Part shown: piece after piece, positions 9,622-23,699 of the stretch
Layout of the letters: each line of letters opens with the position of its first letter
Numbering within the stretch: the stretch's first letter is position 1
Source: an uncultured Planctomycetaceae bacterium
Lineage (GTDB): Bacteria > Planctomycetota > Planctomycetia > Planctomycetales > Planctomycetaceae
Assembly (NCBI GenBank): GCA_963815195.1
Contig: CAWFGE010000008.1
Span: 32,001-96,000, forward strand
Direction of reading: 5' to 3'
Length of the DNA stretch: 64,000 nucleotides
The notes under the pieces: generated by a model
The model's database searches: none
The model's input: only the letters and a program-made list of their open reading frames with translations
What the model was told of the DNA's origin: nothing
Translations under genes and position numbers: made by a program

Positions 9622-10296
9622 ATGCCGCGGATTCTTGTGATCGAAGACCAGCCGAACTTGCTGCGGAGCATCGCCCGGACGCTGCAAGAATCCGGGTTTG
9701 ATGTCCAGATGGCCGGCTCGCTGCAGGCGGCCCGGCCGTTGATTTCGCCGGACGTTGATGTAGTGATTCTCGATTTGATGCTGCCGGACGGGAACGGTCT
9801 GGAGCTGCTGGCCGAGTTGCGGGCGGTCAGCCGCCGGCCCCCTGTGCTCGTGCTGACGGCGCGGGATGCCGTCTCGGACCGCGTGGCCGGATTGGATGCG
9901 GGAGCCGACGATTACCTCGTTAAACCCTTCGCATTCGATGAACTGCTGGCGAGGATTCGCGTGCTCTTGCGGCGAGACGACAGCGAACGGAAGACGGTGC
10001 TCGCGCTGGGCGACCTGCACGTTGATCTTTTGTCGCGCACGGCCCGCCGGGGAAGTCACGAACTGGATCTTCAAAATCGACAATTCGAACTCTTGGTGTT
10101 TTTGATGCGGCACGCGAACCAGGTCGTCACGCGGGAAACGCTCGCCGAGGCGGTCTGGAAGGAAGAGACGGCCACTTGGACCAATGTGATCGCGGTCCAC
10201 ATCAATCAACTGCGGAAAAAACTCGAAATTTCCGGACAACCCCCGATCCTACACACAATTCGGGGACAGGGGTATTTATTGGGAGACGCTCCATGA
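9622..10296 (+). CDS. OmpR-family response regulator (CusR/CzcR-like)
   Basis: ILVIED, DVVILDLMLP, LTARD, GADDYLVKPF, winged-helix end HTIRGQGY. Confidence 0.93.
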   Translation: MPRILVIEDQPNLLRSIARTLQESGFDVQMAGSLQAARPLISPDVDVVILDLMLPDGNGLELLAELRAVSRRPPVLVLTARDAVSDRVAGLDAGADDYLVKPFAFDELLARIRVLLRRDDSERKTVLALGDLHVDLLSRTARRGSHELDLQNRQFELLVFLMRHANQVVTRETLAEAVWKEETATWTNVIAVHINQLRKKLEISGQPPILHTIRGQGYLLGDAP

Positions 10297-11768
10297 CGAA
10301 ATTGTCGATTCGCTGGCGGTTGACGCTCTGGTATGGAGCGACCTTGGCGTTGGCCTTGGGCGGTTTCTGCGTGTTGGTTTTGCTCTTGGCTCGGCATCAA
10401 TTGCTGGCCCATACGGATGCGGCTTTAAGGGAGGAGCTTCAGGAACTGGTCCTCGAAGTCCAAATGGCTCGCAACATGCCCGAACTGGAATCGGAACTGC
10501 AACGACGATTCTTTCAGCATGACATCTATGATTTCCGGGTGTTGGATGCCGCCGGGCGCGTGGTCTTCGCCAGTACGGGATTGAAGAATGTCTCGGAAAA
10601 AATGCCGCCCCAAAAATCCGCCTCCGCGTCTACTCTGCGTTACGAGACGCATCCCCTCGGACGCCAAGGGGATTACCGCATTGCCAGCACGCCGGCCCAA
10701 AGCCCGCTCGGACCGTTCACCGTTCAGGCGATGACGTCCTTGACCCCCTACTATGCCGAAATCCAAACCTTGGAGACGATCGTGCTGATCCTCTTGCCTT
10801 TGGTTCTCGTCGCGGCTTCCGCGGGAGGCTATCTCTTGGCGGGGCGGGCGTTGGCTCCGGTGAAGCAGATTGCGAACGTCGCCAACTCCATCACGATCGA
10901 CCGCCTGGACCGCCGCATCGAAATCGCCAATCCCGACGATGAGATCGGCCGCCTGGCGGCGACTTTGAATTCGCTGATCGCCCGTCTGCAACGCGCCGTC
11001 AATGAAATCCAGCGGTTCACCGCGGATGCCTCGCACGAACTGCGGACTCCGCTGGCCGCCTTGCTTTCGGAAGCCGAATCGGCGCTGCGTTCGCCGAGAT
11101 CCCACGAAGATTACAAACAGACCCTCGCCGTCGTCGTCGAGGAAGCCACCCGGCTGGGGCGGCTGGCAGACCAACTGTTGAACCTCAGCCGGCAGGATGC
11201 TGGAATCCTTCAGTACGCACAGGGCAGTGTCCGGCTGGATGCGTTGTTGTGGGATGTGGCCGACCAGTTGCGCCCATTGGCCGAAAAGCAGAATCTGCGG
11301 ATGGAATGCGGCGAAATGCAGTCCTGTGAACTGCAAGGGGACGACATCCGGCTCAGTCAGGCGTTTTTTAACGTGCTGGAAAATGCCGTGAAATACACCC
11401 CGGCGGGAGGACACATCGAGGTTCGCTGCCGGATTTCCCAAGGATCGGCCCAGATCGAAATCCAAGACGATGGCATCGGCATCCCGGCCGAGAAGCTGCC
11501 TCACGTTTTTGACCGGTTCTATCGCGTTGATCCCTCGCGTTCGGGAAAAGTGGGCGGCGCGGGATTGGGGCTGTCTATCGCCCGCGCGGCCATCATGGCT
11601 CACAGCGGCGACATCCAGGTTCAAAGTCAATCCGGAGCCGGAACGACGGTGACGATTCAGTTGCCGGGTGCCGAGCCCGCTTGCGATGACTTCGATTCGG
11701 GACCCTCACTCGCTGCGGTTGGTCTCGACCACCGGAAGACCATAAAGGGAAAGGGCAACGGCGTTTAG
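10293..11768 (+). CDS. Sensor histidine kinase (heavy-metal sensor CusS/CzcS-like)
   Basis: Two TM helices, HAMP, ADASHELRTPL H-box, NVLENAVKYT, DDGIGI, FDRFYR, GLGLSI; start overlaps regulator stop. Confidence 0.93.
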   Translation: MTKLSIRWRLTLWYGATLALALGGFCVLVLLLARHQLLAHTDAALREELQELVLEVQMARNMPELESELQRRFFQHDIYDFRVLDAAGRVVFASTGLKNVSEKMPPQKSASASTLRYETHPLGRQGDYRIASTPAQSPLGPFTVQAMTSLTPYYAEIQTLETIVLILLPLVLVAASAGGYLLAGRALAPVKQIANVANSITIDRLDRRIEIANPDDEIGRLAATLNSLIARLQRAVNEIQRFTADASHELRTPLAALLSEAESALRSPRSHEDYKQTLAVVVEEATRLGRLADQLLNLSRQDAGILQYAQGSVRLDALLWDVADQLRPLAEKQNLRMECGEMQSCELQGDDIRLSQAFFNVLENAVKYTPAGGHIEVRCRISQGSAQIEIQDDGIGIPAEKLPHVFDRFYRVDPSRSGKVGGAGLGLSIARAAIMAHSGDIQVQSQSGAGTTVTIQLPGAEPACDDFDSGPSLAAVGLDHRKTIKGKGNGV

Positions 11769-11984
11769 GCCCTTAACTCAAATGTTCACACCGCAATCCT
11801 GCCTCCATCGCTTGGTGAATTCGGGTTTATGTTGGTGGTGCGGTTATTGTGGGATGCGACGATTATCCGAACAATGAGATAGGAATCGTTGTGGACCGCT
11901 CCAAACGACGGACTGAGCCATCAAGGTTTGTGAAATATACGCAAAATGCCAAATAGAGTTTTTGACAATTTCGAGTTGGTTCGC

Positions 11985-21096: not shown

Positions 21097-22421
21097 ATGC
21101 AGCATTGATTCGGTCACTGTCTGCCCGAGAAATCCTCGATTCTCGCGGCAATCCCACCGTTGAGGTCGATGTGGTTTTGGAGAACGGTGCCTGTGGCCGG
21201 GCGGCGGTTCCGTCCGGTGCGTCGACCGGTTCGCGGGAAGCGGTCGAACTTCGTGACGGCGATCCGCAGCGATATGGCGGCAAGGGAGTGCTGAAGGCCG
21301 TCGAAAGCGTAGCGACTGAAATCTCCGCAGCGCTGCACGGAGTCGATGCCTGCCAGCAGTCGGAACTCGATGCACTCCTTTGCCGACTGGACGGCACCGA
21401 CAACAAAGTGCGGCTCGGAGCGAATGCCATCCTCGGGGTCTCGATGGCTGCGGCTCGTGCCGCAGCCCAGGCTGAGGGTGTTCCGCTCTATCGCTGGCTG
21501 GGAGGAGACGACGCCCGGACGCTCCCCGTGCCAATGTTCAACGTGCTTAATGGCGGCGTCCACGCCGACAATAGCGTCGATTTCCAGGAATTCATGATCG
21601 CTCCGGTTGGAGCCAATTCCTTTGCCGAAGCGCTACGGATGGGCGCGGAAACATACCACGCCCTGAAATCCTTGCTCAAGCAAGACGGATACGCCACGTC
21701 GGTTGGCGACGAAGGGGGATTCGCCCCGATGCTCAAGGCCAATCACGAAGCGCTGGACGTGATCGTGCAGGGCATCGAGAAGGCCGGCCTGAAACCCGGA
21801 GAAGACATCGTTCTCGCCCTCGACCCCGCTGCCAGCGAGTTCTATGAAAATGGCCGCTATGTCTTTCGCAAATCGAACGGCGGCGACAAGTCGAGCGATG
21901 AAATGATCGCGTTGTATGACTCGTGGATTCGGCAATATCCCATCTGGTCCATTGAAGACGGGCTGGCCGAACAGGATTGGGAGGGCTGGCGCAATCTGAC
22001 GCAAGAGCTTGGCCAGCGGGTGCAACTCGTCGGCGACGACATCTTCGTCACCAATCCGGCGATCATCCGCGAAGCGATTCAACAGAAGGTCGGCAATGCG
22101 GCACTCATCAAACTCAACCAGATCGGCACTGTCACCGAGACGATGGAGGCGATTGCGACGGCACGCTCAGCCCAATACGGCATCGTCATCAGTCACCGCT
22201 CGGGGGAAACCACGGATGACTTCATCGCCGATCTGGCCGTGGCTACCAATGCCGGCCAGATCAAGACAGGTGCGCCCTGCCGCGGCGAGCGACTCGCCAA
22301 GTACAACCGACTGGCTCGCATTGAACAGGAACTCGGTTCAAAGGGCCAATTCGCCGGACGAACGCCGTTCGCGACGACTCGCTCCCACGAAGCATCTGTT
22401 CGCACACAACAATCGGGATGA
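21093..22421 (+). CDS. eno: Enolase (phosphopyruvate hydratase)
   Basis: [63 protein letters not shown]. Confidence 0.98.
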
Positions 22422-22428
22422 GGCAGTG

Positions 22429-23699
22429 ATGGATCACGAGGTTCAGCCCGCCGACCATGAAATCGCCAGCTTACCGGGGGAAGCAAATCGTGATTGGGCC
22501 AACCGCACGGTCGTTGGGGCGGGGTTCACCAGCGCGTTTGGGGATTTTGCCTACGAAACGACGAGTGTGATCTTGCCAGGGTTTCTGGCAGTGCTTGGCA
22601 TCCCGGCAGCGTTTCTCGGTGTGATCGAAGGAATTGCCGATGCGGTGATGAGCTTCACAAAGCTCGCAGCCGGACACATCGCCAACCGGGTTGGCCATCG
22701 AAAGGCTTTGGTAGTCGCAGGATACGCCCTGACTCCGGTTGGTCAGGTTCTGATTGCGCTTTCGCATGGGTGGGCGCTCGTCCTCATCGGCCGGTCCGTC
22801 AGTTGGTTCGGAAAGGGGCTTCGCGGGCCGCTGCGGGACACGATCATGGCTGAAGCCATTACTCCCGCCACACGGGGGCGAGCATTCGGGTTTCACCGAA
22901 TGATGGATACGGTCGGGGCCGTCCTCGGCCCATCGTTGGGCGTCGTCCTGCTGGCCTATTTCCAGTCATGGCAACCGAGCGATGCGGCGTTTCCATTCCG
23001 GCTCGTCTTCTGGATGACCCTGATTCCCGGTCTGCTCTCTGCACTGGTATCCTCCTGGTGCGGGACGATCAGAGCCTGCCCAACCGCACGCTTTCATTCA
23101 TGTCGTCAATTCGCGGGCTGCCCAGCCGATTCCGAAGGTATCTCGTGGCCGCCGGCATCTTCGGATTCGGAGACTTCTCGCATGCCTTGCTAATCCTCGC
23201 TGCAACCCAGGTTCTGACTCCCGCGTATGGCGTTGTCCGTGCCGCTCAAATCGCCGGAGCACTGTACGTTCTTCGCAACGTGGTCCAGGCGTTTTCTTCG
23301 TATCCCATCGGAGCAGCCGCCGACCGGTATGGGCACCACTCCGTCCTATTGGCAGGCTACATGCTCGGTGTAGCGACAGCGATCAGTGCCGCCCTTCTGT
23401 TTGCCACGGGTAGCACGAGCCTGATGCAACTTTCAGTGGTGTTTGTCATCGCCGGCCTGTATGTCGCCGTGCAAGAAGCGATCGAACCCTCGCTCACGGC
23501 TGAGTTCGTGTCAGGCGAATCGCGAAGTGTCAGCTTCGGCCTACTGGGGGCCGTGAACGGATTCGGCAAACTGATCTCAAGCACCGGCGTCGGACTCCTC
23601 TGGACAGCGGTCTCTCCCATTGTCGCTTTCAGCACTGCCGCAGTGCTGATGTTGCTCGGGACCGCCGCCTTGGCGTTTGCAACAATCACAAACCGTTGA
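22429..23699 (+). CDS. MFS transporter (frameshift near 23050)
   Basis: GKGLRGPLRD..RGRAFGFHRMMDTVGA in the first frame; C-terminal half in ORF 22968-23699. Confidence 0.85.

Follow-up and report, generated by a model that had tools for sequence, protein, structure and literature searches.

In this study, we report the analysis of a 64,000-nucleotide stretch (the window) of the genome of an uncultured Planctomycetaceae bacterium (genome G000, 8.87 Mb in 25 contigs), which carries a response regulator (RR) and sensor kinase (HK) pair followed by a tripartite resistance-nodulation-division (RND) pump, the fluoride channel gene crcB, a DUF190 gene, an enolase gene (eno) and two major facilitator superfamily genes (MFS1 and MFS2). 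It is an accessory fluoride-defence locus of known kind, and in several unrelated lineages fluoride riboswitches precede the RND subfamily to which its pump belongs. We interpret it as a crcB-DUF190-enolase cassette joined to an RND pump that is likely induced by the kinase and likely expels a hard cation or a metal-fluoride from the periplasm, an interpretation to which we assign about an even chance. The RND arm of fluoride defence is well supported and apparently undescribed, while the kinase arm is plausible.

Fluoride riboswitches at the pump homologues

The homologous loci comprised 72 genomic (from the best 80 of 149 matches) and 79 metagenomic ones (from the best 80 of 163), with RND proteins of 55-88% identity, and these 151 loci were grouped into 120 clusters at 95% identity. 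Riboswitches were sought in all of them with a covariance model built from nine pattern-search sequences, which therefore match it by construction. For 19 of the 151 loci, mostly picked for a prior match, the Rfam model (RF01734) was used as well, and it gave 21 matches over the gathering score in 15 of them. Weak hits of our own model in L158, L160 and L128 (E 0.001-0.006) and everything with E > 0.1 were left out of the counts, and the class-genome matches L188-L190, lying below the cut-off, are not confirmed.

A fluoride riboswitch was found in 17 of the 120 clusters. It directly heads the outer-membrane factor (OMF) gene of the pump operon in 11 clusters, as assigned by hand from gene maps with the OMFs confirmed, and eight of these 11 leaders reach the Rfam gathering score. 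In the leaders of L030, L113, L071 and L097 a terminator-like hairpin folds over the 3' end of the aptamer (z −1.9 to −5.8), as expected of ON switches. As for the other markers, enolase was present in nine clusters, crcB and DUF190 in six each and CLC in one; 21/120 had any of riboswitch, crcB or CLC. The count for crcB is a floor, since this gene was sought with three queries and within 10 kb (that of G351 lies just beyond). The 2.03 Mb of pump loci held 27 riboswitches, versus 35 in 150 class genomes (about 1 Gb, or about one per 30 Mb); this class baseline, obtained with stricter filters, predicts fewer than 0.1 in 2.03 Mb. On the RND tree, fluoride markers are scattered over five or more distinct parts, while they are absent from a large marine clade rich in Pirellulaceae. 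With respect to gene order, L012 reads riboswitch-crcB-DUF190-EamA-RR-HK-OMF-RND-membrane-fusion protein (MFP)-MFS, and L118 shows the order of the window. The neighbourhood comparison that an earlier note on this DNA had proposed for the RND subfamily thus did not bear out the refuting outcome that the note had named: fluoride riboswitches are strongly over-represented near the homologues and crcB to a lesser degree, though most homologues have no marker. The link of the pump subfamily to fluoride holds, though it is not universal.

The link was also followed in samples chosen without regard to it. Six carriers were selected by their RND gene (G126, G131, G261, G265, G367 and G411), and two of them, G126 and G411, have a riboswitch at the pump. 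The pump locus of G126 (L011, G126:C87) holds four riboswitches within 5 kb, one of which heads a divergent RR-HK pair; the whole genome has seven, one of them heading an AcrB-type pump (L171). In G411 the riboswitch heads OMF-MFP-RND. All four carriers scanned genome-wide contained a riboswitch somewhere, versus 24/150 and 17/150 genomes. When the selection was made by riboswitch instead, six of the 35 class matches lay at loci of this RND subfamily. These include G025 (L194, G025:C449), where two riboswitches occupy one pump operon, at 569-626 and 2414-2470, the one preceding the OMF gene and the other between it and that of a 75%-identical RND. Two more of the 35 matches concern other pumps, the first leading one of AcrB type and the second lying at a distance of 9-10 kb from an unrelated one. 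In G354, the sole riboswitch of the genome heads this pump.

The other genes of the window give a similar picture. The three closest class relatives of MFS1 (62-64%) are all in riboswitch-bearing genomes, one of them beside a riboswitch-led crcB string, and L161 has the order riboswitch-crcB-DUF190-DUF190-MFS-eno. A relative of MFS2 adjoins a riboswitch or crcB in 4 of the 13 other class genomes that have one. With respect to plasmid relatives of the enolase, the best 4 of 328 loci were all in riboswitch-bearing cassettes. One of these four, plasmid pGW6_1 of Methylocystis rosea GW6, carries a riboswitch-led string with eno as its last gene and, next to it, RR-HK-OMF-Usp-MFP-RND, with an RND 55.7% identical to that of the window.

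Some further traits of the homologous loci were recorded. In loci of Verrucomicrobiota type, a YncE-like beta-propeller lies in the same open reading frame (ORF) as the OMF or MFP (L030:6538-8862, L113:6488-8887, L099:532-3027, L159:6437-8857, L028:7898-9958 and L106:2307-4418), although some may be adjacent in-frame genes; a role in periplasmic substrate capture is possible. Dynamin-like GTPase genes recur 3' of fluoride riboswitches near pumps of this subfamily (L012:304-4091, L107:19541-21244, L139:8970-10445, L158:4817-6550, L163 and L166). In addition, an nhaA-I riboswitch (RF03057; L106:7609-7663) separates the RND gene from that of a Na/Ca exchanger and is itself flanked by two fluoride riboswitches, and L028:2382-4232 is a riboswitch-led CLC transporter with a DUF190 domain fused at its C-terminus.

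Class and putative site of the pump

By its profile scores, the RND protein belongs to no characterised class, reaching 494 versus the cut-off of 701 for TIGR00914, 412 versus 940 for TIGR00915 and 621 versus 1250 for NF033617. The traits of the superfamily are present, namely the full AcrB/CusA fold, the relay residues and the MFP and OMF partners. A structure model (pTM 0.74, pLDDT 77) gave the RND fold, with a TM-score of about 0.8 to both CusA and AcrB, and no separation of HME from HAE pumps. The best whole-protein match in the PDB was MdtB (9lyq), and the proton relay is of AcrB type (D410/D411/K934/R966/T971).

The label 'CzcA family', as given by the sources, was not accepted as membership, nor was CzcA/ZneA (HME1-3) for the RND itself, given the TIGR00914 score and a transmembrane helix 4 (TM4) of AIG-X3-DDA type instead of DFG-X3-DG(A/S). 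The protein has neither the methionine triad M573/M623/M672 nor the D405-E939-K984 relay of CusA/SilA (HME4). The TM4 pattern of HME5 (NrsA/CopA), AIG-X3-DD(A/S)-X3-(V/M)EN, is matched, but DLIGD stands at the site, with no His (versus HRMDE/HRLDH), and the identity to CopA is 28%. Membership in the HAE1 multidrug pumps (AcrB/MdtB) is not supported by the TIGR00915 and NF033617 scores.

The periplasmic cleft (residues 555-734) matches ZneA and CusA best and bears five carboxylates, D572, E618, D623, D664 and D668. The copper ligands of CusA (M573, M623, E625 and M672; PMC8092243) align to D572, T621, D623 and D668 or G667, respectively. By means of Synechocystis CopA and a published site table (PMC7060636), D623, D664 and D668 fall in the columns of ZneA residues 610, 654 and 658. 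Asp thus occupies three of the five ZneA proximal-site columns, the register of the last two shifting by 1-2 residues between alignments. Across 139 aligned RND sequences, D572, D623 and D668 are invariant and D664 and E618 nearly so. A bare anion would suit an all-oxygen site of this kind less well than a hard cation (Mg, Ca, Mn, Al or Fe) or a metal-fluoride complex of positive charge, and from these alignments the pump most likely exports one of the latter two rather than free fluoride. The earlier note had proposed a combined defence with a pump possibly for fluoride or metal-fluoride complexes; the fluoride link of the pump family supports it in part, while the cation-like conserved site favours a metal or metal-fluoride over fluoride.

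Organization of the locus

The annotation of the locus is provided in Table 1. All the genes named beforehand were found with protein-family and NCBIfam profiles, in their expected places and on the same strand.

Table 1. Annotated features of the fluoride-defence locus and its right flank (window positions)
Feature	Position	Strand	Evidence
Candidate response-regulator box upstream of RR	9489..9507	+	19.3 bits, weight matrix
OmpR/PhoB-family response regulator (RR)	9622..10296	+	PF00072 + PF00486; best NCBIfam TIGR01387, under cut-off
HAMP-HisKA-HATPase sensor kinase (HK), small periplasmic domain	10293..11768	+	protein-family profiles
Candidate response-regulator box 3' of kinase, pump side	11813..11831	+	30.3 bits, weight matrix
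TIGR03000-domain planctomycete protein, antisense	11985..12584	-	TIGR03000 over cut-off
TolC-family outer-membrane factor (OMF), lipobox-like LLTGC	12788..14482	+	PF02321
RND permease, uncharacterised subfamily	14498..17638	+	PF00873, 753 bits
Membrane-fusion (adaptor) protein (MFP)	17635..18945	+	TIGR01730 over cut-off
MFS transporter 1 (MFS1), intact	18942..20159	+	PF07690
crcB/Fluc fluoride channel; frameshift near 20368 in the assembly	20319..20695	+	PF02537
DUF190 (COG1993) protein	20713..21096	+	PF02641, E 1.7e-41
Accessory enolase (eno), catalytic motifs located	21093..22421	+	TIGR01060 657 vs cut-off 300
MFS transporter 2 (MFS2), single gene split by frameshift near 23050	22429..23699	+	alignment to intact L012 protein
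AbiEii/AbiEi type IV toxin-antitoxin pair, right flank, outside the system	24220..25663	-	PF08843, PF13338, PF19570

The co-directional TolC-RND-MFP-MFS-crcB-DUF190-eno-MFS series read earlier from the sequence is real: its junctions are overlaps or gaps of 7-17 nt, with the exception of 159 nt upstream of crcB. An exporter gene (crcB, frameshifted as assembled) and the gene of a fluoride-inhibited enzyme (eno) are thus adjacent in one string with DUF190. The series had also been placed behind the kinase pair. This order is right, but 1019 nt separate the kinase from the OMF gene and are occupied by the antisense TIGR03000 gene, which is also found between box and OMF in L020 (L020:7543-8109). 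A sigma-70-like site for the antisense gene at 12683-12654 is to be taken as a hint only, given that the pattern scans stayed at shuffle level (sigma-70-like sites, 5 vs 3.5 shuffled; terminators, 18 vs 16.5). Genome G000, whose TIGR03000 and DUF1549/1553 genes and best homologues are of planctomycete type, encodes about 15 RND genes. One belongs to an unrelated second RND-MFP pair within the window (56755-61574, minus strand), 25% identical to the RND studied here.

The surroundings of the locus contain rve/Mu transposase and IstB genes, pieces of serine recombinase and capsid genes, a split SNF2-like helicase gene and the AbiEii/AbiEi pair; the mobile genes stand on either side, several of them fragmentary. 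Window scans around the locus found no tRNA, bounding repeats or GC shift, and the ends of the island are therefore undefined. At E 1e-250, four of 350 other class genomes carried the RND and none of 85 genomes of the same family did, which marks the pump as accessory. The description of the locus as a mobile island agrees with its flanks and with the patchy distribution of the RND, but not with the lack of any boundary signal. With regard to the right flank, an 88-nt direct repeat (70% identical; 23698-23785 and 25712-25799) flanks the AbiEii/AbiEi pair, and an 11-nt tandem repeat at 28960-29019 lies among HTH_17/DUF1580 and split capsid genes, probably of a decayed prophage or satellite.

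Kinase-regulator pair and candidate boxes

The pair had been called CusRS-like. The best of all models are indeed of heavy-metal type, but both proteins are near-misses (TIGR01387, 198 vs 279; TIGR01386, 275 vs 293), so the fit is loose. Orthologous RR-HK pairs (RR 53-76%, HK 46-67% identity) accompany the pump in the clade of the window, and some RR or HK is nearby in 33/120 clusters, often of other groups.

A weight matrix for a 19-bp motif was built from six post-kinase sites of other genomes, the site of the window having already been spotted by eye. With it, the box 3' of the kinase is the top site of the whole genome, the next one scoring 22.8 bits and 28 sites reaching at least 16 bits; a similar box occupies the same place in 10 related loci. 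The box upstream of RR ranks 9th of those 28, and RR-side sites occur at the same position in L004, L006, L012, L023 and L083, none of them in the training set. With its two half-sites 11 bp apart, the motif resembles OmpR/PhoP boxes. Given a conserved box both before RR and after the kinase, it is likely that RR autoregulates and controls the pump through these candidate sites. The proposed kinase control of the island gains from the boxes, but the antisense gene separates the second one from the OMF gene, and a transcript starting there would pass through it.

Proposed mechanism and its alternatives

Fluc channels export fluoride across the inner membrane, enolase is inhibited by fluoride, and RND-MFP-OMF pumps clear the periplasm using the proton gradient. 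On this basis, the phosphorylated regulator would bind both boxes and thereby switch on its own genes together with OMF-RND-MFP-MFS1, from which transcription would continue into crcB-DUF190-eno. Fluc would then lower cytoplasmic fluoride and the accessory enolase offset its inhibition, while the pump may correct a cation balance disturbed by fluoride or remove species such as aluminium-fluoride. The kinase may sense the same periplasmic species that the pump removes, and the kinase-regulator pair would here take the place of the riboswitch control used in other lineages.

It must be noted that several observations weigh against this proposal. Of the 40 clusters whose flanks extend for 8 kb or more upstream and 5 kb or more downstream, 31 have no riboswitch, crcB or CLC and nine have a marker, and four of the six carriers selected by RND gene have no riboswitch at the pump. 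The RF01734 search found no fluoride riboswitch in the window or in G000, and our own model, run on the window with filters off, gave 8 bits at best, with no degenerate riboswitch upstream of crcB. The close relatives L004, L006 and L007 carry the pump without crcB, and a crcB-DUF190-enolase cassette stands without a pump on contig C10 of the same genome. In the tree (whose query was the C10 paralogue, not the copy of the window) the pump-adjacent crcB genes of planctomycetes form one clade; they are therefore not independent and amount to about one event. With regard to the pump, the ZneA ligands E136 and D602 have no counterpart in the RND, and the site residues are the same in fluoride-linked and unlinked RNDs, R611 excepted. 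Within the locus, the antisense gene intervenes between the second box and OMF; upstream of crcB, at 20156-20185, there is a promoter-like site, though a weak one (9/12 matches). Finally, the MFP and RND genes adjacent to Enterobacter cloacae island GI3 were not induced by fluoride, their changes being 0.9x and 1.4x (PMC5533749).

Much of this could be explained if kinase and pump were a self-contained metal or envelope-stress module behind which, in a mobile region, crcB-DUF190-eno had accreted with its own expression, riboswitch control existing only in other lineages. The unmarked clusters, the occurrence of cassette and pump each alone, the heavy-metal type of the best kinase and regulator models, the uninduced RND beside GI3 and the 159-nt gap with its promoter-like site all agree with such an accretion. 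Even so, we consider it rather unlikely, because a riboswitch leads the pump itself in 11 clusters and the kinase-containing strings of L011 and L012, L005, L008, L023, L118 and the window have crcB 3' of MFP with no riboswitch, and both MFS families recur at fluoride loci.

Our interpretation of a cassette joined to a cation or metal-fluoride pump also has a stronger form, in which pumps of this RND subfamily serve specifically to carry metal-fluoride complexes (e.g., aluminium-fluoride) across the envelope, as a third class of fluoride-defence transporters after Fluc and CLC-F, and the kinase protein stands in for the riboswitch by sensing fluoride or metal-fluoride in the periplasm. This form we hold to be unlikely. 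An export of free fluoride or HF from the periplasm through R606/R607/R611, completing the Fluc route, appears improbable. Riboswitches directly lead the pump, R606 and R607 are invariant in the 139 sequences, and R611 is Arg in 25/25 fluoride-linked versus 77/114 other sequences, a pattern that may reflect kinship; however, the five conserved carboxylates at metal-site positions would repel a bare anion, and porins would be the expected way out for small anions.

The integrity of the locus was considered as well. The crcB gene of the window still scores 88.5 bits with PF02537 (cut-off 32.9), and what we take to be the Fluc hallmarks (TM1 ARY, TM2 Asn, TM3 TTFSTF) are all visible. In alignments with its intact, 82%-identical paralogue and with relatives it is frameshifted as assembled, at a position falling in a gap between same-strain contigs, the only contig found there being that of the paralogue. 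Aligned with the intact L012 protein, the two halves of MFS2 show identities of 66% and 53%, which indicates one broken gene; a contig of run X1, possibly the source run of the assembly, crosses the break without any difference. Frameshifts affect 16 of 140 tested genes of this assembly (about 11%, or 0.11 per kb), so that single breaks in this genome are to be read cautiously and the two found here are at background level, about 1.5 being expected in 14 kb. The intact paralogue belongs to a second cassette (G000:C10:341018-342014; L001:11992-13015), 82-88% identical to that of the window, in which crcB-DUF190 is followed by an enolase remnant, with neither pump nor riboswitch nearby. G000 has two further enolases, 55.5% and 48% identical to eno and at least one of them full-length, so a separate enolase exists, as anticipated; in the tree, eno clusters with cassette enolases, apart from these two. 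A decaying copy with a dead fluoride arm (crcB and MFS2 broken, the pump cut off from its box) and export resting on the intact paralogue would accord with both frameshifts, the X1 contig and the enolase remnant, but it is very improbable given the assembly background, the possible origin of X1 as the source run, the intact state of RR, HK, OMF, RND, MFP, MFS1, DUF190 and eno, and the retention of both boxes.

Significance and comparison with known systems

Known fluoride defence ends at the inner membrane and is RNA-switched. If our interpretation is true, a periplasm-clearing pump and a kinase controlling crcB fill both gaps, and the RND subfamily gains a testable substrate. This is relevant to the engineering of strains for organofluorine breakdown, where the released fluoride is limiting, and a cultured carrier, M. 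rosea GW6, is at hand. Literature searches, in which subscription journals were mostly not covered, turned up no account of fluoride resistance with an RND, DUF190 or kinase arm. In the available text of a 2024 review, which lists exporters, Na+/H+ antiporters, enolase and cation transporters, the terms 'RND', 'two-component' and 'outer membrane' have 0 occurrences (PMC11139923). The same text puts the share of Fluc genes under riboswitch control at only about 15%, and it refers to other, unknown regulatory mechanisms and to a link with divalent-cation balance (PMC11139923).

The members listed for the fluoride riboswitch regulon (RF01734; PMC11139923, PMC2864571, PMC7266159), namely Fluc, CLC-F, enolase and Na+/H+ antiporters, all recur near the pump homologues, while the window has no riboswitch. 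Island GI3 of E. cloacae is likewise a fluoride island, acquired horizontally and bearing crcB and an additional eno, and has MFP and RND genes next to it; in contrast to the window, it is riboswitch-controlled and its listed genes include no kinase pair, DUF190 or MFS (PMC5533749). Its RND is likened to ours by position only, not by subfamily, and two related Citrobacter plasmid cassettes had no RND.

With regard to the pump, the HAE1 proteins MdtB and AcrB have the D-D, K, R, T relay in common with the RND, and MdtB is its best whole-protein match; the entries for AcrB and MdtB in the comparison table lack its carboxylate-rich cleft. The HME pumps ZneA (HME3a), CusA (HME4) and Synechocystis NrsA/CopA (HME5) resemble the locus in combining a kinase pair with OMF/MFP/RND; unlike them, the RND of the window, at about 24-28% identity, has no methionine triad or His ligands, and it has Lys at 934, where CusA has Glu. 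Its TM4 (AIG-X3-DDA-X3-VE) is like the HME5 and AcrB-like rows, and in three of the five proximal-site columns it is, as far as the register holds, acidic like ZneA.

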